Shown here: piece after piece, positions 35,241 through 59,290 of the stretch
Layout: each line of letters starts with the position of its first letter
Numbering within the stretch: position 1 is the stretch's first letter
DNA from: Aestuariivirga sp.
GTDB taxonomy: Bacteria > Pseudomonadota > Alphaproteobacteria > Rhizobiales > Aestuariivirgaceae
Length of the DNA stretch: 64,000 nucleotides
Assembly (NCBI GenBank): GCA_043784785.1
Contig: JAYVXY010000132.1
Coordinates: forward strand, 2,931-66,930
Reading direction: 5' to 3'
Notes under the pieces: generated by a model
Databases searched by the model: none
Seen by the model: the letters and a program-made list of their open reading frames with translations, nothing else
Told to the model about the DNA's origin: nothing
Program-made: the position numbers and the translations under genes

Positions 35241-35675
35241 TCACTTTGACAAAGCGGGTTGGTGTGTGTGGCTGTTGGCAATCACAGCCGTTGCTTCGAT
35301 CTCCACTTTCGCGCGGTCTTCGACCAGTGCCACCACTTGTACCAAGGCCATGGCCGGATAGTGTTTACCGATGATGTCGCGATAGGCATGGCCGAGTTCG
35401 GTCAGGCTGGCGAGATATTCTTGTTTGTCAGTTACATAGATGGTGAGGCGGACGAGATGTTCAGGCCCGGCACCAGCCTCAGCCAGAACGGCAATGATGT
35501 TCTTAAGCGTCTGGGCGAATTGATCGACAAAGTCATCGCTTTCAAAAACCTGATCGGCATTCCAGCCAACCAGCCCACCGCAAAAAACCATGCGCCCCGT
35601 TGCGGCCACACCATTGGAATAGCCGCGCGTTGGCTTCCAGGATTTAGGATGCAGAAATTGGTGGGGTGAAGTCAT
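35241..35675 (-). CDS. RidA-family protein (abm-cluster type)
   Basis: LHPKSWKPTRGYSNGVAA, HYPAMALVQV..L....AKVEIEATA; start ATG 35675 (the longer ORF-track entry runs in a shadow frame of the acyl-CoA dehydrogenase). Confidence 0.9.
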   Translation of the reverse strand: MTSPHQFLHPKSWKPTRGYSNGVAATGRMVFCGGLVGWNADQVFESDDFVDQFAQTLKNIIAVLAEAGAGPEHLVRLTIYVTDKQEYLASLTELGHAYRDIIGKHYPAMALVQVVALVEDRAKVEIEATAVIANSHTHQPALSK

Positions 35676-35688
35676 GGGCCTATTCCTT

Positions 35689-36825
35689 TTAACCGAGCAC
35701 AGCGCGGGCAATGACGATGCGCTGCACATCCGACGCACCTTCATAAATGCGCAAAGCGCGGATTTCACGGTAAAGACTTTCCACAGCAAAGCCATGGCGC
35801 ACACCATCACCGCCATGCAACTGTACTGCTGCATCGATAATACGCTGCGCCGCTTCCGTGGCGTGGAGCTTGGCCATGGCGGCTTCGCGGCTGATCCGGG
35901 CAGCGCCCATATCACGCGTCCACGCGGCACGATAAATGAGCAGGGCCGAAGTATCAACTTCCAAAGCCATATCGGCGATGTGGCCTTGCACCATTTGCAA
36001 ATCGGCCAGGACAATGCCGCCCACCTTGCGGGATTTAACGCGGGCCAAAGCCTCGTCCAGCGCCCGGCGCGCAAAACCCAAAGCGGCTGCACCAACGGTT
36101 GACCGGAAAACATCGAGCACTGACATGGCCAGCTTAAAGCCTTCGCCGGGCTTGCCGATCATGGCCGCTTCGGGAAGTTCAATGCCATTGAAACGCAAAT
36201 GGGCGAGCGGATGGGGAGCGATCACATCAATGCGGTTGACGATTTCGAGGCCGGGCGTGTTTGCAGGCAGAAGAAAAGCTGAAAGGCCTTTGGCTCCATG
36301 TGCTTCGCCGGTGCGGGCAAAGACAACATAAAGATCAGCGATGCCACCATTCGAGATATAGGTTTTTTCGCCATTCAAAACATAACCGCCCTGTGTACGT
36401 GTGGCACTGGTTGCGATGGCGGCGACATCAGACCCGGAAGCGGGCTCAGTGAGGGCGAAGGCGGAAATGGCCAAGCCCTTGCGGGTTTTATTCAGCCACT
36501 GGCGCTGTGCAGCTGTGCCAAATAAAGAGACAGCACCCATGCCAAGGCCTTGCATGGCGAAGGCGAAATCAGCCAGGCCATCATGACGCGCCAGAGTTTC
36601 ACGGATCAGACACAGCGTGCGCACATCCAGCTTTTCGCCCACATCAGCGCCGCTGTGTTTCAGCCATCCATCACGGCCCAGCATTTCAACAAGTGAGCGG
36701 CAAGCAGCATCGACATCACCATGATCAACTGGCAGATGAGCCTTGCACCAAACTTCAAGTGCCTCGGCAAGCTCGCGGTGGCGAGGTTCAAAAAACGGCC
36801 ATGACAGAAAACTTGCATCAGCCAT
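35689..36825 (-). CDS. Acyl-CoA dehydrogenase
   Basis: [48 protein letters not shown]; start ATG 36825. Confidence 0.94.
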
Positions 36826-36826
36826 T

Positions 36827-37639
36827 TCAGTTGCCCTCGAACACAGGTTTTTCCTTGGCCAAAAAAGCCCGGTAAGCGCGCTCGAAATCCTTGGTCTGCA
36901 TGCAAATGGCTTGGGCCTGGGCCTCGGCCTCAATGGCCTGCTCCAGGCCCATGTTCCACTCTTGATTGAGCTGGGTCTTGGTGATGCCGTGGGCAAAAGT
37001 GGGGCCTGAAGCGATACGGGTGGCGAGTTTCATAGACTCCTCTTCAAGCGATGCTGCCTCAAAAATTGAATTCCAGAAGCCCCAGCGCTCGCCTTCAGCA
37101 GCACTCATCACACGGCCCGTGTAAAGTAATTCCGCTGCGCGGCCGTGGCCGACGATGCGAGGCAGAATGGCACAAGCACCCATGTCACAGCCAGCAAGAC
37201 CAACACGCGTAAACAGAAAGGCGGTCTTGGCCTCTGGCGTGGCCAGACGCAGATCAGAGGCCATGGCAATGATGGCCCCCGCCCCCACGCACACGCCATC
37301 AACGGCAGAGATGATCGGCTTTCCGCAATTGATCATGGATTTTACCAAATCACCGGTCATGCGGGTGAAGTTGAGCAGGCTTTTCATGTCGAGTCCGATC
37401 AATGGACCGATTATATCATGCACATCGCCGCCCGAGCAGAAATTGCCGCCACTGGATGCAAAAACAACCACGTCCACATCATCGGCATAAACAAGCGCAC
37501 GAAATGTATCGCGCAGCTCGGCATAGCTTTCAAAAGTCAGCGGGTTCTTGCGCTCTGGGCGATTGAGCCGGACGGTGGCAATGCGGCCTTTTACACTCCA
37601 CAGAAAATGCACGGGCTTGAGACCTGCGAGCTTGCTCAT
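36827..37639 (-). CDS. Enoyl-CoA hydratase-family protein
   Basis: [33 protein letters not shown]; subfamily found in abm/sdg clusters. Confidence 0.92.
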
Positions 37640-38091
37640 TTTGATTTTCCTTTGGGCATACGCATCAGTAACTCTGCCATGCCCTCCAACTCCTCTTTCG
37701 TGACGCTTCCGAAAAGATTGTTCACTTCGCGCTCATGGTCAACGGCCAGTCGCTCAAACAGCTTCAGACCTTTTGCTGTAAAAGCAACAAAGACCGTGCG
37801 ACGATCGGTTTCGGATGCTGTGCGCTTGACCAGCCCTTCGCGCTCAAGTCGATCAACGACAGTAGTGGCATTGCCATTCGACACCAGCAACATGCGGCTC
37901 AACTCCGACATGGTAAGGCCCTCGCGCTTCCGGTAGAGGGCGGCCATCACGTCAAAGCGCGGCAATGTGGTTTGATGGTTCACGCGCAAGAATTCGCGCA
38001 AATGATTTTCTGCAGCGCGGGTGACACCAAGCAGCCTGATCCACATTTTCAGGCGGCGCTTGGAGAGGGGGTCAATGTCTGGGGCGTTCAA
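37636..38091 (-). CDS. MarR-family regulator
   Basis: [35 protein letters not shown] winged helix. Confidence 0.93.
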
Positions 38092-38840
38092 GTGTCAAAC
38101 TCCGGAATCGCAATGGTTTGGCCATTTATACTTTCTGAACCGTCTTCGCAAAGGCGCAAGGCTATGGCTGTCACCTCTTTTGGTTCGATGAGGCGGCCAT
38201 TGGCGTTCTGTGACGCAAGGGCTTTCAGCGCTTCTTCTCTTGAGCGTCCGGTTTTCCGGACGATGGCTTCAGCGGATCGACCCGTCATTTCCGTATTGAG
38301 AAAGCCCGGGCAAATGGCATTTACCGTAATTGGCTTTTTGGCTACCTCCAAAGCGACAGATTTAACAAGGCCAATCACGCCATGTTTGGCCGCTGCATAC
38401 GGGGCGACGTACGAAAACCCTTTAAGGCCCGCAGTGGAAGCAATGGCGATAAGGCGGCCCCAGCCTGGCATTTGGTTCAGGCCCTCACGAAAGGTGAGGA
38501 AGACGCCTGTCAGATTTACCGCCAGCATGGCATTCCATTGATCGAGCGTTGTGCGCGTGAAAGGCGCACTATCGGCAGCGCCAGCATTGGCGATGATAAT
38601 GTCACAAGGGCCTGCAGCAGCGAACATGGCTTTGACGCTGTCTTCGCTTGTTACATCGGCGGCTACGGCCCTGATGTTTTGGTGCTTCGCTGCAACAGCA
38701 TTTAGTGGTTCGGTCCGCCGTCCAGAGATGATGACTTCGGCTCCACGCTGCGCAAAGCCAAGCGCGAGATCAGCACCAAGCCCTGTGCCACCACCAGTGA
38801 TCAATACCCGTCTGCTGTTCAATGTTTGATTTTGCGTCAT
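38088..38840 (-). CDS. Short-chain dehydrogenase/reductase
   Basis: [22 protein letters not shown]. Confidence 0.92.
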
Positions 38841-41122
38841 GCGCGCAGTGTTTCCTGTGCTTTCTGGGCCAGCCTGCGCGCTTGGTCACGGCCTGCCAGA
38901 TAGGGCAATGGCCAATGGGTTGCGTCATCGCCTTGGGCGGCTGCAGCATGCAGTGTCCAATAAGGATCAGTCAAATGAGGTCTTGCCAAGCACACCAGAT
39001 CAGCGCGACCTGCCATAAGGATCGAGTTCACATGGTCGGTTTCATAAATATTGCCGACAGCCATGGTCGCAAGACCTGCTTGGTTGCGGATGCGGTCTGC
39101 AAATGGGGTTTGGAACATGCGGCCATAGACGGGCTTGGCCTCATTTGACGTTTGGCCAGCCGAGACGTCGATGATGTCGGCGCCAGCTTCGGCAAACATG
39201 CGCGCAATTAAAACTGCTTCTTCTGGTGTAACACCATTGTGGCCAACCCAGTCATTGGCGGATATGCGCACAGACATGGGCCGCTCAGTGCCCCATGCAT
39301 CTCGCATCGCACCGAACACTTCCAGCGGATAGCGCATGCGGTTTTCCAAACTGCCACCATATTCGTCGCTGCGAATGTTTGAGATGGGTGAGATGAAGGA
39401 TGAAATCAAATAGCCATGTGCTGCATGAAGTTCGACCATATCAAAACCGCAACGCGATGCCATTTCGGTAGCGCTCACAAATTGCGCCTTCACGAGGTTC
39501 ATGTCGTTGTGGTCCATAGCTTTGGGCATTTGATTGTTGAATGACCATGGAATTGCGGAGGCCGACATGACTGGCCAATTGCCTTGTGCCAGCGGGGTAT
39601 CGCCCTCCTCCCAACCCAATTGCGTGGAACCCTTGCGGCCCGAGTGGCCGATCTGGCAAGATATCTTGGCTTCGGTTTCACTGTGAACAAAATCAACAAG
39701 GCGCCTCCAACCCGTTTCGTGCGCAGGTGCATAAAGACCCGGGCAACCTGGAGTGATGCGGCCCTCGGGGGAAACGCATGTCATCTCGGTACCGACAAGG
39801 CCAGCACCACCCTTGGCGCGCTCAGCATAATGGATGAAATGCCAATCACCCGGTACACCATCAACGGCCTTGTATTGGGCCATGGGTGAAACCACGACGC
39901 GGTTGATCAATGACATATTGCGCAGTTTGAAGGGCGCGAACATCGGCGCGCGGCCGGCTGTGCCGCCTGCCTGTTTCTGGAACCAGTCTTCCGTTTGCCG
40001 AAGCCATTTGGCATCACGCTGGCGCAAGTTTTCATGGCTGATGCGCTGGCTTCTTGTGAGCAGCGAATAGGCAAATTGTTCGGGCGGCATGTCGAGATAA
40101 CGCTCGACCTGTTCAAACCATTCGAGCGAGTTGCGCGCGGCTGATTGCATGCGCAGCACTTCCACGCGGCGCTCGTCTTGATAACGCTGGAAGGCTTGTT
40201 CCATTGTGGGTTCGGAATGCAGGTAATCAGCCAAGGCGATAGCGGAATCAAATGACAGCCTTGAACCTGAGCCGATTGAAAAATGGGCGGTGGCGGCAGA
40301 GTCTCCCATAAGCACTACGTTCTTGTGATACCAGTGCTCACAAATAACCCGCGGAAACTGCATCCACACAGCCGAGCCGCGCAGGTGAGCAGCATTGGAC
40401 ATGAGGTTATGGCCGCCCAAATGTTTGGCAAAAATGCGTTCGCAAGTCGCCACAGTTTCTTCCTTCGACATATCTTGGAAGCCCCAGCGATCCCAGGTTT
40501 CGGGCAGGCATTCAACGATAAAGGTCGCCGTGTCGGCATCGAATTGATAGATATGGGCCCAGACCCAGCCATGTTCGGTCTTCTCGAAAATGAAAGTGAA
40601 GGCATCATTGAATTTCTGGTGTGTGCCAAGCCATACGAATTTGCAGCGACGGATATCAATATCGGGTTTGAAAGTTTCGGCATATTCTTTGCGCACTATG
40701 GAATTAATGCCGTCGCTGGCCACCACAAGGTCGTAGTCTTTGCGATAATCTTCGGCGGACTTGAACTCGGTTTCGAAGCGCAATTCCACGCCCAGTTCGC
40801 GCGCGCGTTCTTGCAGCAGAATGAGCATGGTCTTTCGGCCGATGCCAGCAAAGCCATGGCCGCCGGAAACCGTGCGATGGCCGTTATGGACAACGGCAAT
40901 ATCGTCCCAATAGGCAAAATTGGCCCTGATCGCATTGGTGCTTTTGGGGTCGTTCTTTTGCATGCGGCTCAAAGCTTCATCCGACAGCACCACGCCCCAG
41001 CCAAACGTGTCATTGGCGCGGTTGCGCTCCAAAACAGTGACCTGATGGCTGGCATCACGAAGCTTCATGGAAATAGCGAAATAGAGCCCAGCCGGGCCGC
41101 CTCCGAGACACATAATCTTCAT
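38837..41122 (-). CDS. Bifunctional 2-aminobenzoyl-CoA monooxygenase/reductase (AbmA) / salicylyl-CoA 5-hydroxylase family
   Basis: GGGPAGL flavin monooxygenase domain ([18 protein letters not shown]) fused to an Old Yellow Enzyme domain ([22 protein letters not shown]); 761 aa. Confidence 0.92.
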
Positions 41123-41175
41123 GGCATAATTTCCTTTAGGTGCTCATCGGCCAAGAGTGCCACTGACCATAAAGT

Positions 41176-41205
41176 ATTTCAAGCTTAAAATTTCTAGCTT
41201 GAAAT
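41176..41205. promoter_or_regulatory. Tandem palindromic operators (probable MarR sites) in a divergent promoter
   Basis: TTTCAAGCTTAAAA (41177-41190) and TTTCTAGCTTGAAA (41191-41204); together a perfect 10-bp inverted repeat ATTTCAAGCT..AGCTTGAAAT. Confidence 0.6.
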
Positions 41206-41224
41206 TTTTATGGGTTAGAGCATC

Positions 41225-41992
41225 ATGCAGATCATGGATGAACTGATCATGGAGCCGCGCGAAGGATGGGTACGCCTGACCCTGAACCGCCCTTCTGTGC
41301 GCAATGCGCTGAATACTGCACTTCTTGCCATTTTGGCTGATCGGCTTGATGGCCTGGCCGCTGATCCTGAATGTCGGGCTGTACTGATGTGTGGCGCCGG
41401 CGGGAACTTTGCGGCAGGGGCCGATATTGGTGAAATCGAAAACAAGACCAGTGCTGAAGGGGCTGTTGACCCTCGCAAGGCTCTTTGGTCGCGAATTAGG
41501 GCCTTTCCCAAACCTTTGGTGGCAGCGGTGGACGGGTTTTGCCTCGGCGGCGGTTTTGAGCTGGCCTTGATGGCTGATTTTATTGTGATCGGTGGTGATG
41601 CAAAGCTGGGTCTGCCAGAAACCAATCTGGGCCTGATCCCAGGTGCGGGCGGCGGCCAACGCTTGATGGCTCTTGTTGGCCGCGCACGCACGATGCGCAT
41701 GGTGCTGACGGGCGAGATTATTGACGCAGAAACCGCAGAAGCATGGGGCATTGCGGCTTGGCGGATGGAGGGTTCGGCGCTGCCTGAAGCCGAGGCTTTA
41801 TGTGCCAGACTGGCGCGCCGCGCGCCGCTGGCTCTGGTGGCAGCTAAGAAGGCTATTATCGCCGGCGAAGAATCTGCCCTTGCTTTTGCTGGTGAGCGAA
41901 AGGCTTTCGAAGCTTTGCTCGACAGTGCTGATAAGGATGAAGGCATTGCCGCTTTCAAGGCCAGGCGCAAGCCGGAGTTCAAGGGGCAATGA
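41225..41992 (+). CDS. Enoyl-CoA hydratase (PaaF-like)
   Basis: FAAGADI, GFCLGGGFE, PETNLGLIPGAGGGQRL. Confidence 0.9.
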   Translation: MQIMDELIMEPREGWVRLTLNRPSVRNALNTALLAILADRLDGLAADPECRAVLMCGAGGNFAAGADIGEIENKTSAEGAVDPRKALWSRIRAFPKPLVAAVDGFCLGGGFELALMADFIVIGGDAKLGLPETNLGLIPGAGGGQRLMALVGRARTMRMVLTGEIIDAETAEAWGIAAWRMEGSALPEAEALCARLARRAPLALVAAKKAIIAGEESALAFAGERKAFEALLDSADKDEGIAAFKARRKPEFKGQ

Positions 41993-43119
41993 TGGATCCT
42001 CCCATGATTGGCGTTGTTGGTCTTGGCACGATGGGGCTTGGAATTGCGCAGGTTTATGCACAAGCTGGGTTCGTGGTGTTGGCCACAGATGCGCAAGCGG
42101 TGGCGCGGGCTGCGGCAAAGACGAGATTATCAGACACGCTGGCCGAACGTGTAGCGGCGGGCAAGCTTTCAGCAGATGCGCGCGAAGCTACGATGGCAAA
42201 ACTCACCATCGTTGACGACTTAGAAGCCATGGCCCCTGCTGGATTGGTGATTGAAGCGATTGTCGAAACCTTGGAAGCCAAGCGGACTTTGTTTGCCGCG
42301 CTTGAAAAAATCGTAAGCCCCGATGCGGTGTTGGCCAGTAACACTTCCTCTCTTTCCATTGCTGCAATAGCTGAAGGTCTTTCAGTTCCACCGCGTGTGT
42401 TGGGCTTGCATTTTTTCAATCCGGCCCCGGTCATGAAACTCGTTGAACTGGTGGCCCATGCGGGCACAGGCAGCAGCAGTTTGGCGCGGACACGCAGTGT
42501 AACTGAAGCAGCGGGCAGAACGGTAATTGTTTGTGGTGACCGGCCTGGCTTCATCGTCAATCGCTGTGCGCGGCCATTTTATGGCGAGGCCTTGGCGATG
42601 CTTGAAGAAGGGCGCAAGCCTGCGGATGTCGATGCAGCCATGGTGGCGGCAGGTTATCGCCTGGGGCCGTTTGGGTTGATCGATTTGGTTGGAGCCGATA
42701 TCAATCTGGCAGCAACGCGCGAGCTTTGCGCGGCGATGGGTGGGCATCCGCGTTATCATGTGTTTGATGCGCTCGTGGCGCAAGTTGAAAAAGGCGAGCT
42801 CGGGCGCAAGACTGGTAAAGGTTTTGTGTTTCCGGCAGCGGCAGTTCAAGCGCCTTCTGACGCGCAGGCGATTGCCCTCCGCATTGAGGCGACGTTGGCC
42901 AATGAAGCAGCCAGTCTTTTGGCTGAGGGCAGTGTTGATGAGGCGGGGATCGACACGGCGTTAAAGCTGGGATTGAATTTTCCGCGTGGGCCGTTTCAAT
43001 CGCTGCGCGCCCATGGTCTTGGGCTAATCAAAACCACGCTGGCCGAACTCGAAGACAAAGCACCGCCACATCTTAAAGGGCGCTATATTCTTTCCCCAGA
43101 ATTGGAGGCCATGGCATGA
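41989..43119 (+). CDS. 3-hydroxyacyl-CoA dehydrogenase (PaaH-like, short C-terminal repeat)
   Basis: GLGTMGLG, IEAIVE, SNTSSLSI, GLHFFNPAP, PGFIVNR, GRKTGKGF. Confidence 0.92.
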   Translation: MMDPPMIGVVGLGTMGLGIAQVYAQAGFVVLATDAQAVARAAAKTRLSDTLAERVAAGKLSADAREATMAKLTIVDDLEAMAPAGLVIEAIVETLEAKRTLFAALEKIVSPDAVLASNTSSLSIAAIAEGLSVPPRVLGLHFFNPAPVMKLVELVAHAGTGSSSLARTRSVTEAAGRTVIVCGDRPGFIVNRCARPFYGEALAMLEEGRKPADVDAAMVAAGYRLGPFGLIDLVGADINLAATRELCAAMGGHPRYHVFDALVAQVEKGELGRKTGKGFVFPAAAVQAPSDAQAIALRIEATLANEAASLLAEGSVDEAGIDTALKLGLNFPRGPFQSLRAHGLGLIKTTLAELEDKAPPHLKGRYILSPELEAMA

Positions 43120-44294
43120 CCGATGTATTTATCTGCCGAAGCAAGCGTACAGCAATTGGCAGCCACGCAGGCGCTCTTGCCATGGTGCGGCCCGATGATA
43201 TGGCAGCGCTGGTTATCGATGCGGTTCTGGAAGGTCTCGATCTTCCCATTGACGAGGTGTTTTTCGGTTGTGCCAATCAGGCGGGCGAGGATAATCGCAA
43301 TGTGGCGCGCATGGCGGTACTGTTGTCACGGCTGGATGAAAATGTTCCAGCGCTGACAGTGAACCGGCTTTGCGCCAGTGGGCTTGATGCGGTGATAATT
43401 GGTGCACGCGCTATTGCCAGTGGCGCTGCAGAAGTGGTCGTGGCAGGCGGAGTTGAAAGCATGAGTCGCGCGCCGTTTGTGATGCCAAAGGCCGAGAGCG
43501 CCTTTTCGCGCAAAGCCGAAATTCATGACACCACGATTGGCTGGCGCTTTGCTCATGCGCGAATTGCTGCCACCTATGGCATTGAATCGATGCCGGAGAC
43601 GGCTGAGAATGTGGCGCTTGAATTTTCGATCTCGCGGGTTGATCAGGATGAATACGCTCTGCGCAGCCAGCAGCGTTATGATGCCAGCTGGCATGAGCTT
43701 GATATTGTGCCAGTAACGATCCCTGCCCGCAAAGGGGAACCGGTGATCGTCAAGACGGATGAACATCCCCGCAGCACATCGCTTGCGAAACTGAACGCAT
43801 TGCCAACGCCCTTCCGCAAAGGTGGCTCAGTGACGGCGGGTAATGCTTCGGGTGTAAATGATGGGGCCGCTGCTGTGCTTCTGGCCTCGGCGGCTGCGGT
43901 GAAGCGTTATGGTTTAACTCCGCTGGCCCGCATGGGGGCCTCCGCAAGTGCCGGTGTTGCTCCACGTTTGATGGGCATTGGCCCAATTGCAGCGGTTGGA
44001 AAACTCGGCAAACTTGCGGGGCTTATGCCCAAAGACTTTGACGTGATTGAACTTAATGAGGCTTTTGCAGCGCAAGTGTTGGCCTGCACCCGGGCTTGGG
44101 GTTTGGCGGATGATTCGGCCCATGTGAACGCCAAGGGCGGTGGCATTAGCTTAGGCCATCCGCTTGGCATGTCAGGTGCGCGGATTGCTGGTGCAGCGGC
44201 ACGCAGACTTCATGAAACAGATGGCCGGAATGCCTTGGTGACCATGTGCGTGGGCGTTGGCCAGGGCGTGGCCTTGGCGCTGCACAGGCCTTAA
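43116..44294 (+). CDS. pcaF: 3-oxoadipyl-CoA thiolase (PcaF/PaaJ-like)
   Basis: GCANQAGEDNRNVARM, NRLCASG, IHDTTIGWRF, NEAFA, GHPLGMSG, CVGVGQG. Confidence 0.88.
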   Translation: MTDVFICRSKRTAIGSHAGALAMVRPDDMAALVIDAVLEGLDLPIDEVFFGCANQAGEDNRNVARMAVLLSRLDENVPALTVNRLCASGLDAVIIGARAIASGAAEVVVAGGVESMSRAPFVMPKAESAFSRKAEIHDTTIGWRFAHARIAATYGIESMPETAENVALEFSISRVDQDEYALRSQQRYDASWHELDIVPVTIPARKGEPVIVKTDEHPRSTSLAKLNALPTPFRKGGSVTAGNASGVNDGAAAVLLASAAAVKRYGLTPLARMGASASAGVAPRLMGIGPIAAVGKLGKLAGLMPKDFDVIELNEAFAAQVLACTRAWGLADDSAHVNAKGGGISLGHPLGMSGARIAGAAARRLHETDGRNALVTMCVGVGQGVALALHRP

Positions 44295-47748: not shown

Positions 47749-47756
47749 GATAAGTT

Positions 47757-47783
47757 AGCCTCTCCGACAGGGCCGGAGAGGCT
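47757..47783. other. Intercistronic stem-loop after the binding-protein gene (probable mRNA-stabilising or attenuating hairpin)
   Basis: Perfect 10-bp stem AGCCTCTCCG / CGGAGAGGCT with 7-nt loop. Confidence 0.6.
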
Positions 47784-47804
47784 TTTCCTTGCATAGTGTA
47801 TAAG

Positions 47805-51773: not shown

Positions 51774-53302
51774 CTTTGGTTGCCGAACCCAGTCTGGAAA
51801 AACCGCTCACCGTTGCCATTCTCGCCATGGGCGGCCAGGGCGGTGGAGTGTTGGCCGATTGGATTGTCGCGGTCGCCGAGTCCAATGGCTGGTATGCCCA
51901 GTCGACCTCGGTTCCCGGCGTCGCACAACGTACGGGCGCCACGCTTTACTACATTGAAATGCTGCCTCCGCGTGGCGCCATGGCACCGGTTTTGGCCCTC
52001 ATGCCAACGCCAGGCGATGTCGATGTGGTGATCGCTTCGGAACTCATGGAAGCGGGCCGCTCGATTTTGCGCGGGCTTGCAACACCTGATCGCACTGTGT
52101 TGATCACTTCTACTCACCGCGCTTACGCTATTTCCGAAAAAGAAAAACCAGGTGAAGGCATTGGCGATCCGCGCTCTGTGAATGCGGCGGCAGGCATTGC
52201 TGCAAAGCGCGTTATCTCTTTTGATATGGATGACGTGGCGCACCAGAATGGTACGGTGGTTTCATCGCCCATTCTCGGGGCTCTTGCGGGTGCGGGCGTT
52301 TTGCCGTTCTCGCGCGATAGTTTTGAAGCTGTGATCAGTGTCGGTGGCAGAGGTGTTGCGGCATCGCTCAAAGGTTTTGGCGCGGGTTTCGATTTAGCTG
52401 CGGCCAATGAATTACCAGCGGCCCGCATTGCGCCCGAAAAGGTTTTTGAAGCCGTGCCGCAAAGCCTGGGCCATGCCAAGCTTGATATGCTGTTGCCGCG
52501 ATTCAGGGCTTTGCCGGATAGCGTGCAGAGCATGGCGCTGGCCGGGTTTAAGCGCGTGGTTGATTTTCAGGATGTGGCTTATGGCAGCACTTATCTTGAT
52601 CGGCTGGAAACGCTGTACATGGCTGATGTTCAGGCCGGCGGTGCGGCCAAGGCCTTTGCTTTTACAGCAGCAACTGCAAAATATCTGGCCAATGCGATGT
52701 CTTATGATGATGTGATTGGTGTCGCTGATCTTAAAACCCGTTCCAGCCGCTTTGCGCGCATTGCCAGAGAGATGCAGGTTCGAAACAATGAGCCGATTTA
52801 CTTCACTGAGTTCATGCATCCGCGCGCGGAGGAATTGGTGAGTATGTTGCCGGCAAAATTGGGCGTTTGGGTTTCTGTCAGACCCAGCTTAATGGCTTGG
52901 CTGGACCGACGCATCAACAAGGGCCGCAATGTTGAGACGGCGAAGCTCTCAGGCTTCTTGCAGCTCTATGCAATTTCTTCCTTGCGGCGATTTCGGCGCG
53001 GTCTATTGCGCCATAAACGCGAGATGGAGCATGTCGAAATTTGGCTGGCCTTGGCCTTGCGACACTTGCCACAGAATTATGGTTTGGCGCGTGGCATTGT
53101 TTCAACCAGGCGGTTGATCAAGGGCTATTCCGACACCCATGCACGCGGACTTTCAAAATATGACCGTGTGCTATCTGCGGTTCCCGTGTTGGCAAACAGA
53201 GATGATGCCGATATCTGGATGGATCGATTGATTTCAATTGCGTTGAAAGATGAAAATGGCACAGCGCTTGACGGGGCGATCTTGACGCTAAAGTCACTTT
53301 GA
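51770..53302 (+). CDS. iorB: Indolepyruvate oxidoreductase beta-subunit family protein (long form with C-terminal extension)
   Basis: AMGGQGGGVL, SVPGVAQRTGAT, ELMEAGR, MSYDD..VADLK. Confidence 0.9.
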   Translation: MTLVAEPSLEKPLTVAILAMGGQGGGVLADWIVAVAESNGWYAQSTSVPGVAQRTGATLYYIEMLPPRGAMAPVLALMPTPGDVDVVIASELMEAGRSILRGLATPDRTVLITSTHRAYAISEKEKPGEGIGDPRSVNAAAGIAAKRVISFDMDDVAHQNGTVVSSPILGALAGAGVLPFSRDSFEAVISVGGRGVAASLKGFGAGFDLAAANELPAARIAPEKVFEAVPQSLGHAKLDMLLPRFRALPDSVQSMALAGFKRVVDFQDVAYGSTYLDRLETLYMADVQAGGAAKAFAFTAATAKYLANAMSYDDVIGVADLKTRSSRFARIAREMQVRNNEPIYFTEFMHPRAEELVSMLPAKLGVWVSVRPSLMAWLDRRINKGRNVETAKLSGFLQLYAISSLRRFRRGLLRHKREMEHVEIWLALALRHLPQNYGLARGIVSTRRLIKGYSDTHARGLSKYDRVLSAVPVLANRDDADIWMDRLISIALKDENGTALDGAILTLKSL

Positions 53303-53818
53303 TGGATCAGAGTTGTCCAATCTGATATTGCGTAAGACCTTCTGCATTGTCGCCACAAACCGGGTGAATTCATCCTCGCCAATGTCGCGGAACATCTGCT
53401 CGTAATGATTGAACATGATGGGCCAGAATTCGGCAAACGCGTTGCGGCCTTCGGGTGTCAGCTGCACTTCGCGCACGCGCATGTCATTGGCCCGCAAAGC
53501 GCGTTTTACAAAGCCACGCGTTTCAAGATTATCAAGTGTGCGGCTCATGGTGGATTGTTCCGTCACAGTCAGAACTGAAAGCTCGTTGATGTTGAGGCCT
53601 GAGTTGATGCTCAGCACGGCCAGCACGCGCATTTGCGGCGTGGTGAGATTGAACTTGCGCAGCTCGGCCGCGAGGTCGGCGTTCCAGGTGGCTGCGATGC
53701 GATTCATCAAATAGGGCACGAAAAAATTGAGGCCGATTTCTGCAAGTGACGGCATAGAGGTATCGGCTGCGGCCTCACGGTGAAGCACGCCTTGCAGGAA
53801 GTCCATTTTTCCAACCAC
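53294..53818 (-). CDS. MarR-family regulator
   Basis: FVPYLMNR, EQSTMSRTLD.LE..G.V.R..D.R winged helix; start uncertain. Confidence 0.9.
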   Translation of the reverse strand: MVGKMDFLQGVLHREAAADTSMPSLAEIGLNFFVPYLMNRIAATWNADLAAELRKFNLTTPQMRVLAVLSINSGLNINELSVLTVTEQSTMSRTLDNLETRGFVKRALRANDMRVREVQLTPEGRNAFAEFWPIMFNHYEQMFRDIGEDEFTRFVATMQKVLRNIRLDNSDPSK

Positions 53819-55392
53819 TATGTGAGTGCCTCCGCAAGCAAGAAACCAGAACCGCCGCCCAGACCTGCACCGGGATGGGTTGAAGCACCGATGTGATATA
53901 ATCGCTTCACGGATGTTTCGTGATTGGTTGTGCCCCGCAAGGGTCGCCAGAGGAAGAACTGGTCGATCGAGCAGGCACCGCCATAGGGATCGCCGCCGAC
54001 GAGATTGATATTCATGGCCTCAAGATCAGCTGGTGAATAGCAGCGGCGCTTGATGATGGAGGCTTTGAATCCCGTGATGTGTTTGGCAAGGATGGCTTCG
54101 ACACGGTCAGCATAGACTTCACGCAACGCTTCGGTCCACTGGCCATCCTTCGGCACCTTGATCTCGCCTGCAGCATCGCCTTTCACATGGCGCGGCGCTT
54201 CGGGGAGTTGCAGCCACAATATGGCCTTGCCCTCAGGTGCGCGCGAAGGGTCAAAAGCCGTGGGCTGGCCTAAGCAAATGGTGGGCTCCACGGGCAGCAT
54301 GCCACGCTCGGCTTCGTTGACGGCTTTTGAAACACCATCAAGGCCCGAGGTGAAATGGAGCAGCGCAACTTTGGCCAGGTCAGGCGATTTCCACTTGGGC
54401 GGTGCTTTCAAAGCATAATGGATTTGCATATTGCCTTTGCCATGGACAAAGCCTTTGGCCTGCGTCCGCAATGCTTCTGAAGGCTGATGATTTTTCAACA
54501 GGCGGCCATAAAGTTGCGAAGGTGTCATGGAGCAAATCACACCTTGCGCAGCAGAGATTTTTTCACCTGAGGCCAGCATCACACCTGTGGCGCGGCCTGC
54601 ATCATCAACAACCACTTCACTCACGTCAGCACCGGTTCTGATCTCGCCGCCATGATCGTGGATCAATTGCTCGAAGGCTTTCAAAATATTAGCGGCACCG
54701 CCCTTGACGATGGGGGCACCAGCGGCTTCCAAAGCGAAGGCAATAACCTTGGCCATTTGGCCTGAGTAAGCAGATTCAGGCCCCAGCCCCGTATGCAACA
54801 CCCAAGGCGCCATCAAGGCATGGAACAAATCAGACTGATAGTGCGGTTCAAGCCAATGGCGGGCTGGAATGAGGGCTTCGCCAAAAAACGACGAGAGGGC
54901 GCGGGGGCCGCGCTTCCACGCCTCGCGCAACACGGTTTTGGCCATGGCCCAAGACCAGAGCCTGCCACCCAGCAACGCAAACAGGAAAGGCGCATTGGCC
55001 CCCAGCTTGTCCATATCAGCGGCATATTGCTTGCCGTCACCAGCCGCCAGTTTTTCGAATGCTGTTATATTGGCAGCACGGTCTCGTCCGAGTGTGAGGC
55101 TCGAACCATCAGGGCGCAACACACCTGTGGGAATTTCGGGATGAGCGAATTCAAGGCCGCGCTTGGTCAGCTCTGGGGCCAAGGCCGCATAGGCAGGGGA
55201 GAGCAGAAACAACACAAAGGTTGTGGCCATCACATCGTGGGTGAAGCCCGGCACCGTGGCCTCTTGCGTGCAGATGCAACCGCCAATCACATCATTGCGC
55301 TCAAGCAGCAGAACCTTCTTGCCCTTGAGAGCAAGAAGGGAACCCGCTACCAGCGCATTGACTCCACTACCGACGATCACATAATCGGTCAC
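53818..55392 (-). CDS. Phytoene desaturase-like FAD-dependent oxidoreductase (copy 2)
   Basis: VVGSGVNAL, ER...GG, PGFTHD, C-terminal LYHIGASTHPGAGLGGGSG. Confidence 0.9.
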   Translation of the reverse strand: MTDYVIVGSGVNALVAGSLLALKGKKVLLLERNDVIGGCICTQEATVPGFTHDVMATTFVLFLLSPAYAALAPELTKRGLEFAHPEIPTGVLRPDGSSLTLGRDRAANITAFEKLAAGDGKQYAADMDKLGANAPFLFALLGGRLWSWAMAKTVLREAWKRGPRALSSFFGEALIPARHWLEPHYQSDLFHALMAPWVLHTGLGPESAYSGQMAKVIAFALEAAGAPIVKGGAANILKAFEQLIHDHGGEIRTGADVSEVVVDDAGRATGVMLASGEKISAAQGVICSMTPSQLYGRLLKNHQPSEALRTQAKGFVHGKGNMQIHYALKAPPKWKSPDLAKVALLHFTSGLDGVSKAVNEAERGMLPVEPTICLGQPTAFDPSRAPEGKAILWLQLPEAPRHVKGDAAGEIKVPKDGQWTEALREVYADRVEAILAKHITGFKASIIKRRCYSPADLEAMNINLVGGDPYGGACSIDQFFLWRPLRGTTNHETSVKRLYHIGASTHPGAGLGGGSGFLLAEALT

Positions 55393-55404
55393 CGTGGTTA
55401 TGCC

Positions 55405-56232
55405 TTATTTTCCAACAAGAGCTAACACCCGCAAGGGGCTTCCCGTGCCGTTCTTGATTTTTAGCGGAGCTGCAATGATCACAGCGCCTTTGGGCGGCAG
55501 CTTGTCGAGATTGCACAGGCTGGCAAGGCCATAGCGATTAGCTTTGTGCATGAGGTTATGGGCCGGGAATGGTGGGTCCATACCGCCGGCCGAACCAGCA
55601 TCGGTTCCTACAGTTTCCGAACCCCAGCCAATAATGCCGCGCTTCAACAGATAATGAATGGTTTCTGCGGTCGGGCCAGGTGAGTGTGGGCCGTTTTCAT
55701 CGACGTTCAAGAAGGTTTCTTCACTCTCATTGCGCTTATACCAATCGGTGCGCATCACAACCCATGTGCCCTTCTCGATCTTGCCGTGTTGTTCTTCCCA
55801 GGCCTTCACATGCTCGACGGTCAACAGAAAATCTGGATTCTTTTTTACTTGCTTGCTGCAATCGATAACATTCACAGGGGCCACGAAATTCTTGGGCGCA
55901 ATGGTGTCGGTCGAACCATCCTTATAATCCTTGCCGGTGATCCAGTGTTGTGGCGCATCGAAATGCGTTCCCGAATGTTCGCCCAGCTTAAGCCAGTTCC
56001 AAGCCCAGTAAGGGCCCTTGTCATCATAGTGAGAAATGGTGTGGATTTCGATTTTCGGCGTGTTCAGTCCGATGGAGGGCGGCAGCTTGATGAGCGGCGT
56101 GTCAGGGCCCAGCGTGGCGGTCAAATCGATCACCTTCACTTTGCCGGTCAGCAATGCTTCGGCCATGCTGGTAAGTGAATTCTTTTTTGCCGCGATCTTG
56201 CGTACAGGTTTTTTTGCTGCCTTCTTAGCCAT
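55405..56232 (-). CDS. Cyclase-family amidohydrolase, isatin hydrolase-like
   Basis: WAWNWLKLGEHSGTHFDAPQHWITGKDY (HxGTHxDxPxH metal motif), GPHSPGP, GTDAG..GGMDPPFPAH, KIKNGTGSP; closely resembles the Labrenzia isatin hydrolase as I recall it, not searched. Confidence 0.85.
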   Translation of the reverse strand: MAKKAAKKPVRKIAAKKNSLTSMAEALLTGKVKVIDLTATLGPDTPLIKLPPSIGLNTPKIEIHTISHYDDKGPYWAWNWLKLGEHSGTHFDAPQHWITGKDYKDGSTDTIAPKNFVAPVNVIDCSKQVKKNPDFLLTVEHVKAWEEQHGKIEKGTWVVMRTDWYKRNESEETFLNVDENGPHSPGPTAETIHYLLKRGIIGWGSETVGTDAGSAGGMDPPFPAHNLMHKANRYGLASLCNLDKLPPKGAVIIAAPLKIKNGTGSPLRVLALVGK

Positions 56233-56388
56233 GGTTTCCTCGCCTTGTTGTTTTATGCCCAGCTGGTTCGCTGCCTGAGCTTTTGTGAGAGACTATTGCA
56301 ATCCCATGAATTTTCAAGTTTCAATTTCAACTAAATCCACTGAATTTTGACATGACAGCCGCTATTGCATGATTTTGCAAGGACTGGA

Positions 56389-57972
56389 TCAGACCCCGGC
56401 TAACATCTTGCCCAACAAATAACCAGAGCCGGCACCGGTGCCCGCCCCCGGCCAAGTTGCTGCACCGCACATGTACAGCTTGCCGATCGGCATTTTATAA
56501 CGCGAATAGCCGGCCACGGGGCGGAAAAGGAAATTCTGATCGAGATGATGGCTGCCGGAGAGATTGTCACCGCCAATGAGACAGGGATTTTCGCTTTCCA
56601 AATCATCTGGTGAGAAGACAGCGCGACCGATGATTTTGGATCTTGTGCCCGGTGCATAGGTTTCAATGATATCAAGCACACGCTCGGCATAGGTTTCTTT
56701 GATTGCGCTCCACTCCAGGCCAGCAATAACATTGGCCGCATCGCCTTTGATGTGCTTTGGCAGAACGCGCACTTGCACCCACAACACATGTTTTCCGGCT
56801 GGTGCACGGCTTGGATCAATGGCGGTGGGCTGGCCCACTACCAGTACGGGGGCTTTGGGCAGCAGGCCATCCATGGCTTGGGTGTAGGCCGATGTCATAT
56901 AATCAAATGAAGGTGCAATATGCACATAGGCGAATTTGCTCAATGCCTCACCCGCCTTCCAATCCAGTGGGCTATTCAGTGCCAGATGCAGCATCATGGT
57001 GCCGGGGCCGGGGCGGAAGTTTTTGAATTTTGCATCAAGGCCAACATTGCCGCTGCCACTTGGCAGAAGCCGGTTGAACAAGACCCAAGGCGTGACATTG
57101 GCGATGACGGCCTTGCGCGCAGTGATGCGCTGGCCACCAGCTAAAATCACACCATCTGCTTTGCCCTGCCCGCTGATGATTTCCGTCACGGGTGTTGAAA
57201 GGTGCAATTCACCGCCCAGCTCTTTAAGATAGGCGGTCATGGCCATGATCATCGTATCGGCACCGCCCTTTCCAATGACCATGCCAAAAGCTTGGTTGGC
57301 CATGGATTCAAGGTAAGGAAAAAGAGCCCCGCCCGCGATATCAGGCGCAAAATCAAGATGCATGCCCCAAGCGCCAAGCGTGGCTTTGACTTTTGGGTTT
57401 TCGAAACTGGCATCCAACCAAGTGCGCGGCGAAGACAGCAGAAACCGCAGCATATCAAATACCCAAGCCGTGCCCATTTTACGCCACGCCTGCCACACCA
57501 CCTTTGCAGCCGCCCAAGAGGGCATGGTGTTGCCGAGCAGGCCAAAGATGTGAGGCGCGTCATTACCAAATTGCTGCAACATGCGCTGCCAGCTTTCGGC
57601 ATCATGCGGGTTGATTGCATGAAGCCGGTCCAATGTCTGCGCAAGCGTTTTTGACACGCCAAACCAGGTTCCGTCATTGAAGACCGAGGCAAAGCAGTCC
57701 TCTGCCGGGGCAAAGGCCAGACCATGGCGGCCCAATGCCTCGCCATATTCTTTCAAGAAGGGTGAGCCTGCAAACATGGAAAGATTCATAGCGCAGAGGT
57801 CGTGGCGGAAACCTGGCAGAGTCAACGCGCGGGTTTTGATTGCGCCACCTGCTTCAGCATTGTCTTCATAGACGGCCACCCGCCAGCCGCGTTTGGCCAG
57901 ATGAATGGCAGCGGCCAAACCATTATGTCCGGCACCGACAATTACGGCATCATAGGTTTTTGGCTCTGTCAT
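56389..57972 (-). CDS. Phytoene desaturase-like FAD-dependent oxidoreductase (copy 1)
   Basis: IVGAGHNGL, PGFRHD, C-terminal LYMCGAATWPGAGTGAGSG; start 57972 or 57987. Confidence 0.9.
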   Translation of the reverse strand: MTEPKTYDAVIVGAGHNGLAAAIHLAKRGWRVAVYEDNAEAGGAIKTRALTLPGFRHDLCAMNLSMFAGSPFLKEYGEALGRHGLAFAPAEDCFASVFNDGTWFGVSKTLAQTLDRLHAINPHDAESWQRMLQQFGNDAPHIFGLLGNTMPSWAAAKVVWQAWRKMGTAWVFDMLRFLLSSPRTWLDASFENPKVKATLGAWGMHLDFAPDIAGGALFPYLESMANQAFGMVIGKGGADTMIMAMTAYLKELGGELHLSTPVTEIISGQGKADGVILAGGQRITARKAVIANVTPWVLFNRLLPSGSGNVGLDAKFKNFRPGPGTMMLHLALNSPLDWKAGEALSKFAYVHIAPSFDYMTSAYTQAMDGLLPKAPVLVVGQPTAIDPSRAPAGKHVLWVQVRVLPKHIKGDAANVIAGLEWSAIKETYAERVLDIIETYAPGTRSKIIGRAVFSPDDLESENPCLIGGDNLSGSHHLDQNFLFRPVAGYSRYKMPIGKLYMCGAATWPGAGTGAGSGYLLGKMLAGV

Positions 57973-58190
57973 GGCAAACTCCGGCATGGCGAACTCCTGC
58001 CTTTTTGTTCTTTAGCAACGCGGTCATCAGCCGTAAACGTCTATCGCATTTGCATGCATATGCATATTTCAACTTTCTATTTCTGATAAATTCAGACATT
58101 TCCTCGCATTACTCTTGTGCAAACAGATTTTTCATATTTAAAATAAATTGCCGATAGGCGCTCATAATAAAACATGGAGGAACGACACAA

Positions 58191-58778
58191 ATGAAACGGA
58201 CGTTAATTGCATTGCTGGCTTTGACTGGCCTCACCCAAACCGCTCTTGCTGGCATGCCCGGCATGAGAGGCCATGACCACACCGGCTTTACCGTGCCGGA
58301 TATGAACCAGGCTGTTACCTTCTTTACCGATATCGTTGGCTGCGAGAAGGCCATGTCATTCGGCCCGTTTAAAGATGATAAGGGAACTTTTATGACAGAT
58401 GCGCTGGGCGTTGATGCCCGCGCCGTAATCGTTGAAATCACCCAAATGCGCTGTGGCGTCGGTTCGAATATCGAACTGTTCAAATACACGGCACCAGATC
58501 AAAAAGTGATCATTCAGAAAAACAGCGACATCGGCGCTTACCATATCGCCTTCTATGTCGACGACGTAAAGGCCGTGAAAGTTTTTTTCGACTCAAAAGG
58601 TGTAGCGTCTAGAATGGGGCCAATTCCGGTGGATCAGGGCCCTGCCGCCGGTCAGACAATTCTTTATTTTCAAGCTCCTTGGGGCCAACAACTTGAGGCC
58701 ATCAGCTATCCCAAAGGCATGGCCTATGAAAAAGACAGCAAAGTTATTTTGTGGTCGCCCAAAGACCCTGCAAAATAG
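58191..58778 (+). CDS. VOC (glyoxalase/bleomycin-resistance) family protein with predicted signal peptide
   Basis: MKRTLIALLALTGLTQTALA leader; DHTGFTVPD, IELFKY, YHIAFYVDD, YFQAPWG..LE; AGGA-type RBS upstream. Confidence 0.88.
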   Translation: MKRTLIALLALTGLTQTALAGMPGMRGHDHTGFTVPDMNQAVTFFTDIVGCEKAMSFGPFKDDKGTFMTDALGVDARAVIVEITQMRCGVGSNIELFKYTAPDQKVIIQKNSDIGAYHIAFYVDDVKAVKVFFDSKGVASRMGPIPVDQGPAAGQTILYFQAPWGQQLEAISYPKGMAYEKDSKVILWSPKDPAK

Positions 58779-58827
58779 TCAGGCTGCGGGCTGGTTCCCG
58801 ACCCGACCACATGATAGAGATTTCTTC

Positions 58828-58858
58828 GGGCGGAAAGATATTTTCCGCCCTGGTTTTT
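58828..58858 (+). terminator. Probable Rho-independent terminator after the VOC gene
   Basis: GGGCGGAAA-GATAT-TTTCCGCCC stem followed by TGGTTTTT. Confidence 0.55.
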
Positions 58859-58876
58859 ATCTTGAGAGAATATTTC

Positions 58877-59290
58877 ATGGCAGTGAGCTTCACGACGGAT
58901 CGCATGTTGAATTTCGGTGATTGCGATATTTCCGGTACGGCCTATTATCCATCTTATCTCAACATACTCAATGGCGTGATCGAGGAGTTCTGGACCAAGA
59001 TCGGATTTCCCTGGCATGAAATCATCTGGAAGGAACGCTGGGGCACCCCCACAGTCCACCTCACATGCAATTTCTCAAAGCCATCCTATTTCGGAGATAG
59101 GCTGACATTCGGACTGACAGTGACCAAAGTTGGCCGATCATCTGTCACCATCGAGCATACCGTGTATTGTGGCGAAGAAGCGCGCTGGTCTGGGCACTAG
59201 GTTTTGGCTGCAAGCTGGCTTGATAAACATACATCCATGCCTTGGCCCGAGGATGTGAAAGCAAAGCTCATGAGTTTTTTGCCGCAATAG
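58877..59290 (+). pseudogene. 4HBT-like acyl-CoA thioesterase interrupted by an in-frame TAG at 59198-59200
   Basis: FGDCDISGTAYYPSY hotdog motif, KVGRSS; the frame continues after TAG as VLAASWLDKHTSMPWPEDVKAKL to a stop at 59290. Confidence 0.8.

Follow-up and report, generated by a model that had tools for sequence, protein, structure and literature searches.

Positions 35241-59290 of the analysed DNA, a 64-kb stretch of Aestuariivirga sp. from sediment metagenomes (hereafter the window), carry a set of genes that appears to serve the breakdown of an indole compound via isatin. From left to right, the set comprises an abm operon with an AbmA-type monooxygenase/reductase, three genes for PaaF-, PaaH- and PcaF-like enzymes, a Dpp-type importer, the oxidoreductase subunits IorA and IorB, a second MarR gene, an isatin hydrolase (IH) gene between two flavoprotein genes (FlvA and FlvB), a VOC protein and a thioesterase (Table 1). 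All gene classes that an earlier note on this DNA had claimed for the region were found by listing of open reading frames (ORFs) and profile searches, with slight corrections of the coordinates. IorA starts at 49611, where ATGGCnGA aligns with the orthologs, and not at 49530, and the start of RidA was re-set to the Met just downstream of the stop of the acyl-CoA dehydrogenase gene. Outside the cluster lie housekeeping and sugar-transport genes to the left and phosphoenolpyruvate synthase to the right.

Table 1. Genes and candidate operator sites of the isatin/abm region (window positions; domain and model names as in the respective databases).
Feature	Position	Strand	Evidence and remarks
RidA/L-PSP family protein (enamine/imine deaminase type)	35241-35675	-	PF01042, E 1.7e-22; last gene of the abm operon
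Acyl-CoA dehydrogenase (ACAD), abm module	35689-36825	-	Acyl-CoA_dh N, M and C domains; ATG at 36825, giving 378 aa
Enoyl-CoA hydratase (ECH), PRK08258 type, abm module	36827-37639	-	NF006107, 477.6 bits (cut-off 330)
MarR1, inside the abm operon	37636-38091	-	PF01047/PF12802
Short-chain dehydrogenase (SDR), abm module	38088-38840	-	adh_short, E 1e-49
AbmA-type bifunctional flavin adenine dinucleotide (FAD) monooxygenase/old yellow enzyme (OYE) reductase, 761 aa	38837-41122	-	NF006101, 1279.5 bits (cut-off 1078)
Imperfect palindrome, 28-nt arms, core TTTCAAGCT..AGCTTGAAA	41163-41218		Inverted-repeat search; divergent abmA/paaF promoter region; candidate MarR1 operator
PaaF-like enoyl-CoA hydratase	41225-41992	+	ECH_1, E 1.6e-52; NF007239, 257 bits (under cut-off 371)
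PaaH-like 3-hydroxyacyl-CoA dehydrogenase	41989-43119	+	3HCDH_N and 3HCDH domains
PcaF/PaaJ-like 3-oxoacyl-CoA thiolase	43116-44294	+	NF006551, 567.8 bits (just under cut-off 605)
Dpp/Opp-type ABC importer, five genes	44291-49385	-	Pfam
Importer ATPases	44291-45091, 45091-46041	-	Pfam
Importer permeases	45933-46748, 46741-47748	-	Pfam
Importer substrate-binding protein (SBP), SBP_bac_5	47805-49385	-	Pfam; closest structures DppA, AccA
Operator-like site ATATGATTTTGCATGT	49571-49586		Some 25 bp before the start of IorA; matches ATATGC-N4-GCATAT; candidate MarR2 site
IorA (IadA ortholog), thiamine pyrophosphate (TPP)/Fe-S alpha subunit	49611-51773	+	TPP_enzyme_C, TIGR03336
IorB (IadB ortholog), POR + DUF6537 beta subunit	51770-53302	+	NF006179, 657.9 bits (cut-off 348); PF01558 and PF20169
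MarR2	53294-53818	-	MarR/MarR_2; predicted regulator of the isatin module
Flavoprotein A (FlvA), CrtI/CrtO-family FAD oxidoreductase	53818-55392	-	Amino_oxidase, NAD_binding_8
Isatin hydrolase (IH), IHB type	55405-56232	-	LaIHB similarity, signature motifs
Flavoprotein B (FlvB), CrtI fold	56389-57987	-	36% identity to FlvA; AlphaFold2 (AF2) model
Second ATATGC-N4-GCATAT-type operator copy	58052-58067		Divergent FlvB/VOC promoter region
VOC (glyoxalase/dioxygenase superfamily) protein	58191-58778	+	Weak NCBIfam VOC matches; signal peptide
4HBT-type acyl-CoA thioesterase	58877-59290	+	TIGR00051 match; premature TAG at 59198-59200

The isatin-hydrolase-like cyclase proposed earlier can be assigned by its sequence as an isatin hydrolase. 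It aligns over 259 residues with the crystallised LaIHB of Labrenzia aggregata (4j0n/4m8d; E 4.8e-121), has the PF04199 fold (E 6e-37) and carries the Mn site HSGTHFDAPQH at residue 86 (pattern HxGTHxDxPxH), GLAS at residue 235 and the pocket motif WAW at residue 76. Isatin hydrolases are marked by GLAS or GLQC, as against I(L/I)E in kynurenine formamidase, and by a WxW/FxW aromatic pocket (PMC6117287), so that every published signature motif is present in the cyclase, which scored 28.9 bits against a cut-off of 223 with the arylformamidase model TIGR03035. The opening of isatin to isatinate by this protein is thus well supported by its motifs and homology. The Mn-binding, GLAS and aromatic-pocket motifs are shared with LaIHB, but the pocket reads WAW here and FAW there; next to this comparison it may be noted that a locus from the Stappiaceae (L066) has the same cluster type as the window. 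The cyclases found next to IorA in other genomes carried the isatin hydrolase signature in 45 of 45 cases, 22 with GLAS as in the window and 23 with GLQC as in IadI of the canonical iad loci for the degradation of auxin (indole-3-acetic acid, IAA).

IorA contains the TPP motif GDG-x26-DN at residue 510 and shares 13 invariant cysteines with 65 homologs, among them those of two ferredoxin-like motifs (CxxCxxC...CP), and judged by these motifs it is a competent subunit of a 2-oxoacid:ferredoxin oxidoreductase (OFOR). Its TIGR03336 score (281.8 bits) is under the cut-off of 650.9, and IorA is therefore not an equivalog of the archaeal IorA; the gene context argues for isatinate and not indolepyruvate as the substrate of IorAB. 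Among the 80 relatives of IorA described below were canonical iad loci of Achromobacter, Pusillimonas, Pseudomonas and Bradyrhizobium with the published gene order (MarR / IorA-IorB-reductase-Rieske alpha-beta-ligase-thiolase-SDR-cyclase), which identifies IorAB of the window as orthologs of IadAB. In comparison with the canonical Achromobacter loci, IorA is 65-66% identical to IadA and IorB 49-51% to IadB; the cyclase is 51-55% identical to IadI of canonical loci and MarR2 just 26-28% to Achromobacter IadR.

IadA and IadB have been described as exclusive markers of iad-type loci (PMC9613470). In Variovorax they are annotated as alpha and beta subunits of an 'indolepyruvate ferredoxin oxidoreductase' (730 + 502 aa), IadI being the cyclase annotated as kynurenine formamidase and IadR a MarR regulator, and both subunits were 2.5- to 3.5-fold upregulated with IAA in oxic Variovorax boronicumulans. 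The route from IAA via dioxindole, isatin and isatinate to anthranilate was described in Bradyrhizobium in 1995 and underlies the iad loci of Variovorax that protect root growth. In V. paradoxus, a compound C8H7NO3 built up strongly only when iadC-K2 was expressed in a background without iadAB; isatinate has this formula, and N-formylanthranilate was excluded by the authors. C7H7NO, the formula of 2-aminobenzaldehyde, built up in the same iadC-K2 strains. A 4-hydroxybenzoyl-CoA thioesterase is contained in the iad loci of Variovorax and Bradyrhizobium and closes the Variovorax locus. The full texts of the accessible iad literature give no function for IadA or IadB, and as far as this literature goes the isatinate step of the IAA route is without an assigned enzyme; a full-text search, which did not cover most subscription journals, found no earlier publication that links isatinate, IOR and 2-aminobenzoyl-CoA.

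The earlier suggestion that the entry into the pathway differs from that of the iad loci holds for the front end with its Rieske and IadFGH genes, which in the window gives way to the two flavoproteins and the Dpp-type importer, but not for IorAB, the cyclase and the MarR gene, which correspond to IadA, IadB, IadI and IadR. The window and the iad loci have in common the orthologous IorAB/IadAB pair, the IadI counterpart, an adjoining MarR gene and a nearby 4HBT thioesterase, and the published iad pathway runs via dioxindole, isatin and isatinate. In contrast, the window lacks the Rieske genes IadCDE, the ligase IadF, the thiolase IadG and the dehydrogenases IadH/J, its importer is of the Dpp type and not of the branched-chain-amino-acid type, and its hydrolase belongs to IHB (GLAS) instead of IHA (GLQC). 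Two CrtI-fold flavoproteins flanking the hydrolase and an adjacent abm module are additional to the iad gene set. The region is therefore best filed as a Rieske-less variant of iad that is fused to an abm module, and not as a separate system.

To assess how these genes are distributed, one genome per species was scanned with IorA of the window, which gave 80 loci at 64-83% identity; the nearest relatives of the window are Aestuariivirga-like Hyphomicrobiales. Genes were counted by tblastn with the window proteins (coverage ≥50%, E ≤1e-8) in 10-kb flanks and not from ORF clusters, because ORF calling on the GC-rich loci gave antisense artefacts; loci of at least 20 kb were taken as full-length, and related genomes are not independent observations. 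An IH homolog was located within 10 kb of IorA in 35 of the 57 full-length loci, abm genes occurred in 16 and a Rieske gene in 15 of them, and at least one of the three was present in 42. Seen from the hydrolase, IorAB was found in 15 and a CrtI-type flavoprotein in 14 of 18 full-length IH loci from isolates and metagenomes, and a flavoprotein also accompanied IH on 40 of the 45 metagenome contigs with enough flank. IorAB adjoins AbmA in 17 loci, and the IH-linked loci are scattered across the entire IorA tree without forming a single clade. By reasoning, for a gene with one or two copies at most, such as IH, to lie in a 20-kb interval about an arbitrary gene of a genome of several megabases should be a sub-percent event; as dozens of genomes of several phyla have these genes together, their grouping goes far beyond chance.

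Three locus architectures could be distinguished, namely the canonical iad type, the Flv type to which the window belongs, and a minimal type. The Flv type was seen in Rhizobium, Roseiarcus, Devosia, Microbaculum, Tepidamorphus, Mesorhizobium, Stappiaceae and Afifellaceae, often as two divergent operons (Dpp-SBP-FlvB / IH-FlvA-MarR-(VOC)-IorA-IorB). Among its carriers are the isolates Rhizobium tubonense, Rhizobium sp. CF080, Devosia limi DSM 17137 and Microbaculum marinum KCTC 52363. The minimal type consists of IH-IorA-IorB-AbmA-SDR-(MarR)-ECH-ACAD-thioesterase-RidA without a ligase and occurs in Gemmatimonadaceae, Ca. Acidoferrum and Acidobacteriaceae (L049, L073, L080), where all of its genes share a strand and are separated by short gaps; Sphingopyxis (L070) has the genes of this type, those of abm being inverted relative to the others. 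In these minimal clusters IorAB sits between IH, which makes a 2-oxoacid, and AbmA, which uses the matching aroyl-CoA. Nitratireductor has IH-MarR-IorAB as an isolated unit. A hybrid was found in Oceanicella sp. SM1341 (L085, 2224-20786), where Dpp importer-FlvB / IH-FlvA-MarR-IorA-IorB / MarR-IadC-IadD-IadE-IadF follow each other; judged from this gene order, one IorAB is shared there by a flavoprotein and a Rieske IAA front end.

The AbmA-type operon of the earlier note was borne out by a full-length match above the cut-off, with NF006101 covering residues 1-758 of 768. The N-terminal half resembles the VioD-like FAD monooxygenases and the C-terminal half an OYE ene-reductase. Although NCBIfam names this family salicylyl-CoA 5-hydroxylase/oxidoreductase, 2-aminobenzoyl-CoA is a likelier substrate than salicylyl-CoA in view of RidA and of the IH and IorAB genes in the neighbourhood. 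The remaining genes of the operon recur around AbmA in other loci as well: orthologs of the ACAD (54-78% identity) and of the NF006107 hydratase (60-85%) adjoin it, the SDR comes after it in L049, L073, L080 and L003, a MarR gene takes the same operon position in L027, L070, L073 and L057, and RidA co-occurs with it. The two-domain AbmA and the beta-oxidation-type genes are also found in the aerobic 2-aminobenzoate (abm) clusters of Azoarcus evansii and in the anthranilate-CoA clusters of Arthrobacter sp. Rue61a, those of Azoarcus presumably containing RidA and MarR like the window. The PaaF-, PaaH- and PcaF-like genes do not reach an equivalog cut-off. Their placement in the lower abm pathway is supported by a metagenomic operon (L120, Ga0164243_10000669, 6-10738) in which AbmA-SDR-ECH-ACAD, a fused ECH/3-hydroxyacyl-CoA dehydrogenase, a thiolase and, further along, isatin hydrolase lie on one strand; this locus has no IorAB or ligase homolog within 10 kb (tblastn, E ≤1e-8) and is an exception to the IorAB rule. 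For the '3-oxoadipyl-CoA-type' end product named earlier, nothing speaks beyond the sub-threshold similarity to PaaF, PaaH and PcaF.

In the characterised abm clusters a ligase gene lies beside abmA, whereas in the window this functional position is held by IH and IorAB. No AMP-binding ligase was found in the 64 kb by the PROSITE motif in six frames and by tblastn with IadF, homologs of IadF and IadG were absent from the 64-kb window, and tblastn with the Rieske protein IadD on the whole window returned nothing below E 0.68. For IacA and IacE, no scanned ORF of the window matched such a family, with no search aimed at these two proteins. A ligase ORF was likewise lacking in 10 of 12 Rieske-free loci with IH, IorAB and AbmA, and present in both full-length AbmA+IorAB loci without IH (n=2). 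This distribution of the ligase fits a conversion of isatinate to 2-aminobenzoyl-CoA.

With regard to regulation, IorA is preceded at a distance of approximately 25 bp by the palindromic motif ATATGC-N4-GCATAT, and the same holds for five orthologous loci. When up to two mismatches are allowed, the 64 kb contain six copies of the motif as compared with 3.5 expected by chance, and two of these six sites lie in the divergent SBP/IorA and FlvB/VOC promoter regions. Orthologs of MarR2 (49-59% identity) are located between FlvA and IorA in loci of the Flv type. As the palindrome between abmA and paaF differs from the operators of IorA and FlvB, the motifs point to two MarR regulons, and the idea of a single co-regulated supercluster was not supported. 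From these candidate operators we infer that MarR2 controls the importer, IorAB and FlvB-IH-FlvA, and that MarR1 controls the abm genes together with paaFH-pcaF. The first module would span 44291-59290, probably under MarR2, and the second 35241-44294, probably under MarR1. In one 'ice' metatranscriptome, short contigs with 0-1 mismatch to PaaH, SBP, IorA, FlvA, IH and FlvB were detected at very low depth; the same or a very close population may be transcriptionally active there, but DNA carry-over is possible, and the contigs are not evidence of co-induction.

Taken together, we consider it somewhat probable (about 60%) that the two modules form a route for an indole compound in which isatin is hydrolysed to isatinate, isatinate is converted by IorAB to 2-aminobenzoyl-CoA, and the ring is degraded by the Abm enzymes. 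OFORs turn a 2-oxoacid and CoA into the acyl-CoA that is one carbon shorter. IH makes an aryl 2-oxoacid, AbmA uses an aroyl-CoA one carbon shorter, and IorAB is placed between them, which suggests the step from isatinate to 2-aminobenzoyl-CoA. A TPP/Fe-S 2-oxoacid oxidoreductase converting an aryl-glyoxylate and CoA to aroyl-CoA and CO2 is known from Azoarcus evansii, whose phenylglyoxylate:acceptor oxidoreductase (CoA-benzoylating) we take to be the closest precedent; that enzyme has five subunits and belongs to anaerobic phenylalanine metabolism, in contrast to IorAB, which has two subunits (720 + 510 aa, with DUF6537) and occurs in pathways that seem to be aerobic. The proposed route would begin with uptake by the Dpp-type importer of the substrate, possibly isatinate or a close precursor, and with the formation of isatin by the flavoproteins. 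The Mn-dependent hydrolase would then yield isatinate (2-aminophenylglyoxylate), and IorAB would form 2-aminobenzoyl-CoA and CO2 from isatinate and CoA, passing the electrons to a ferredoxin-type acceptor, a reaction that we infer from gene context and the known chemistry of the OFOR family. From what is known of its family, AbmA would convert 2-aminobenzoyl-CoA to 2-amino-5-oxocyclohex-1-ene-1-carboxyl-CoA, whereupon RidA, the hydratases and dehydrogenases, the ACAD and the thiolase may deaminate, open and shorten the ring in beta-oxidation-like steps. No anthranilate-CoA ligase would be needed. The single ligase-independent route from IH via IorAB to AbmA, as claimed before, is thus strongly supported by conserved synteny, compact ligase-free clusters in distant phyla included, and the metabolomics of isatinate agree with it, its steps past isatin hydrolysis being predictions.

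Several observations weigh against this route. The substrate specificity of IorAB is not legible from its sequence, and the NCBIfam name of the AbmA homolog points to salicylyl-CoA. Approximately a quarter of the full-length IorA loci have neither IH nor abm nor Rieske genes within 10 kb, and conversely there are IH-Flv pairs (R. rhizogenes, Brucella tritici) and one IH-abm operon (L120) with no IorAB inside 10 kb. Two loci with IH, IorAB and AbmA (L010, L032) also carry a ligase, and the uncultured genome to which the window belongs may encode a CoA ligase or the canonical iad set in other places. Each module seems to have its own kind of operator, and no gene for a ferredoxin or another electron acceptor was seen in the cluster. 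OFORs are often oxygen-sensitive, while AbmA needs O2. Finally, Variovorax iadC-K2 without iadAB still yields anthranilate, from which it follows that a route from isatinate to anthranilate without IorAB exists, at least in the Variovorax host.

This last result also counts in favour of the explanation that we placed second, in which isatinate reaches free anthranilate by other means (spontaneously, with peroxide, or by a decarboxylase and an aldehyde dehydrogenase via 2-aminobenzaldehyde), a ligase is encoded elsewhere, and IorAB acts on another imported aryl 2-oxoacid, for instance on indole-3-pyruvate to give indoleacetyl-CoA, the genes being co-located through shared tryptophan/indole catabolism. 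The detection of C7H7NO would agree with this explanation, as would the family name and the TIGR03336 and NF006179 matches, which point to indolepyruvate-type enzymes; furthermore, the importer is divergently paired with IorAB in loci without IH (L005, L006, L016), and a ligase adjoins the abm genes in L006, L057, L010 and L032. We nevertheless regard it as rather unlikely and ranked it behind the isatinate route, because the compact clusters of Acidobacteria, Gemmatimonadota and Sphingopyxis consist just of IH, IorAB and abm genes and leave no enzymes for indoleacetyl-CoA and no ligase. The isolated IH-MarR-IorAB unit of Nitratireductor, the lack of a ligase in the 64-kb window and the accumulation of isatinate precisely in the construct without iadAB also speak against it.

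The vicinity of IorAB and AbmA in 17 loci could also mean that IorAB serves the lower abm pathway and decarboxylates a ring-opened aliphatic 2-oxo-dicarboxylate after AbmA. This appears improbable, given that IorAB accompanies IH without abm genes in many loci (the iad loci of Achromobacter, Pusillimonas and Pseudomonas, and Nitratireductor), that L120 encodes a complete abm and beta-oxidation operon with IH and without IorAB, and that the abm intermediates are already CoA esters, so that a CoA-acylating enzyme would have no obvious substrate. Least of all do we expect the 24 kb to be a loose collection of aromatic, peptide-transport and fatty-acid genes without a common pathway. The distribution of the sub-operons over both strands, the two different MarR operators, the scores of PaaF, PaaH and PcaF under their equivalog cut-offs and the rearranged gene order between genomes would be compatible with such an assembly, but despite these rearrangements the families recur together in Alpha-, Beta- and Gammaproteobacteria, Acidobacteriota and Gemmatimonadota, and a shared operator joins the importer/IorAB promoters with those of FlvB/VOC.

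In the isatinate route, the flavoproteins would supply the hydrolase. FlvA and FlvB are paralogs and reach 172-204 bits with the CrtO model NF045689 (cut-off 1000) and 104-134 bits with TIGR02734 (cut-off 238). The AF2 model of FlvB (pLDDT 84) matches best the fold of a gamma-carotene desaturase (4rep, TM 0.75-0.81), followed by nicotine and putrescine oxidases. A role as carotenoid desaturase or ketolase was rejected in view of scores far under the cut-offs and of the neighbours IH, IorAB and MarR; the fold is common to the CrtI/CrtO family and FlvA/FlvB, but the context is carotenoid synthesis there and indole/isatin catabolism here. Profile and fold matches together indicate FAD dehydrogenases or oxidases, and a search for their substrate by PDB sequence search, AF2 model and fold search returned just CrtI and flavin amine oxidase folds. 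No other partner is linked to isatin hydrolase as tightly as FlvA, which adjoins the hydrolase even without IorAB (L083, L084) and probably makes isatin. With low confidence we propose that the pair turns an oxindole- or indoxyl-type precursor into isatin, our best guess being that FlvA oxidises dioxindole, for which one two-electron oxidation would be enough. FlvB, which is co-directional with the importer in L028, L032, L038, L040, L066 and L085, might speculatively perform the preceding oxidation of an oxindole/indoxyl-type compound in a manner similar to the methylene-to-keto chemistry of CrtO. In Brucella tritici (L084, 10001-20789), the IH-flavoprotein pair lies beside a sulfatase, a maturase of the formylglycine-generating enzyme (FGE) type, an FAD monooxygenase, a flavin reductase and an Acyl-CoA_dh_2-type oxygenase; this single locus hints at indoxyl sulfate or indole as a possible source for the flavoprotein.

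Orthologs of the SBP with 65-72% identity are encoded divergently from IorA in L001, L005, L006, L007, L010, L016 and L037, and loci without IH or Flv (L005, L006, L016, L027) still have the importer paired with IorAB, so that its ligand may be isatinate itself. The N-terminus of the VOC protein (MKRTLIALLALTGLTQTALA) is a typical signal peptide, and the protein is therefore probably exported; it is nevertheless conserved next to the isatin module in several genomes, orthologs (58-79%) occurring in L005, L010, L011, L038, L040, L087, L088 and L105. In the thioesterase gene, the TAG replaces a Gln of the 90%-identical ortholog in L027, and about 29 C-terminal residues are lost. The T at 59198 is present in all three metagenome assemblies at 30-40x depth, while a related strain in another sample has C (CAG); in all likelihood the TAG is a genuine nonsense allele of this population. 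The window thioesterase is 31% identical (E 1e-23) to that of the minimal IH-IorAB-Abm operons, and the 4-hydroxybenzoyl-CoA thioesterase of the Variovorax and Bradyrhizobium loci is of a similar kind. A thioesterase of this type could release the anthranilate that is reported as end product, and the intact 4HBT enzyme, truncated in this population, would free anthranilate from its CoA ester.

The window and its relatives suggest a specific and testable function for IadAB/IorAB. They would further lead one to expect a CoA thioester as the actual product, which enters the Abm pathway; this would explain why many abm clusters have no ligase. The wider claim, that IorAB/IadAB is an isatinate:acceptor oxidoreductase (CoA-acylating) with which the isatin branch of indole and auxin breakdown in bacteria ends in 2-aminobenzoyl-CoA and not in free anthranilate, that anthranilate arises just via the 4HBT thioesterase or side reactions, and that the CrtI-fold pair is a new type of isatin-forming enzyme through which oxindole- or indoxyl-type compounds enter independently of a Rieske oxygenase, seems to us evenly poised between true and false. 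The proposed function is of relevance for the engineering of auxin-degrading inoculants and for the reading of 'anthranilate as end product'. If true, it would widen the substrate range of oxygen-compatible 2-oxoacid:ferredoxin oxidoreductases. The comparison also revealed a compact cluster for isatin catabolism, as predicted from its genes, in Acidobacteriota and Gemmatimonadota, and the flavoprotein pair, which is widespread, uncharacterised and tightly linked to isatin hydrolase, constitutes a second lead.

Two observations concern other parts of the window. In a sugar-type SBP_bac_1 gene at 33429-34696 (minus strand), a frameshift separates an N-terminal ORF (34229-34696) from a C-terminal one (33429-34103); the gene is either a pseudogene or the product of an assembly error. 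At 19913-25636 (minus strand), a 268-aa ORF without a Pfam match occupies the imuA position of an error-prone repair cassette that encodes an ImuB-like Y-family polymerase with IMS domains and a 1162-aa DnaE2-type Pol III alpha subunit.

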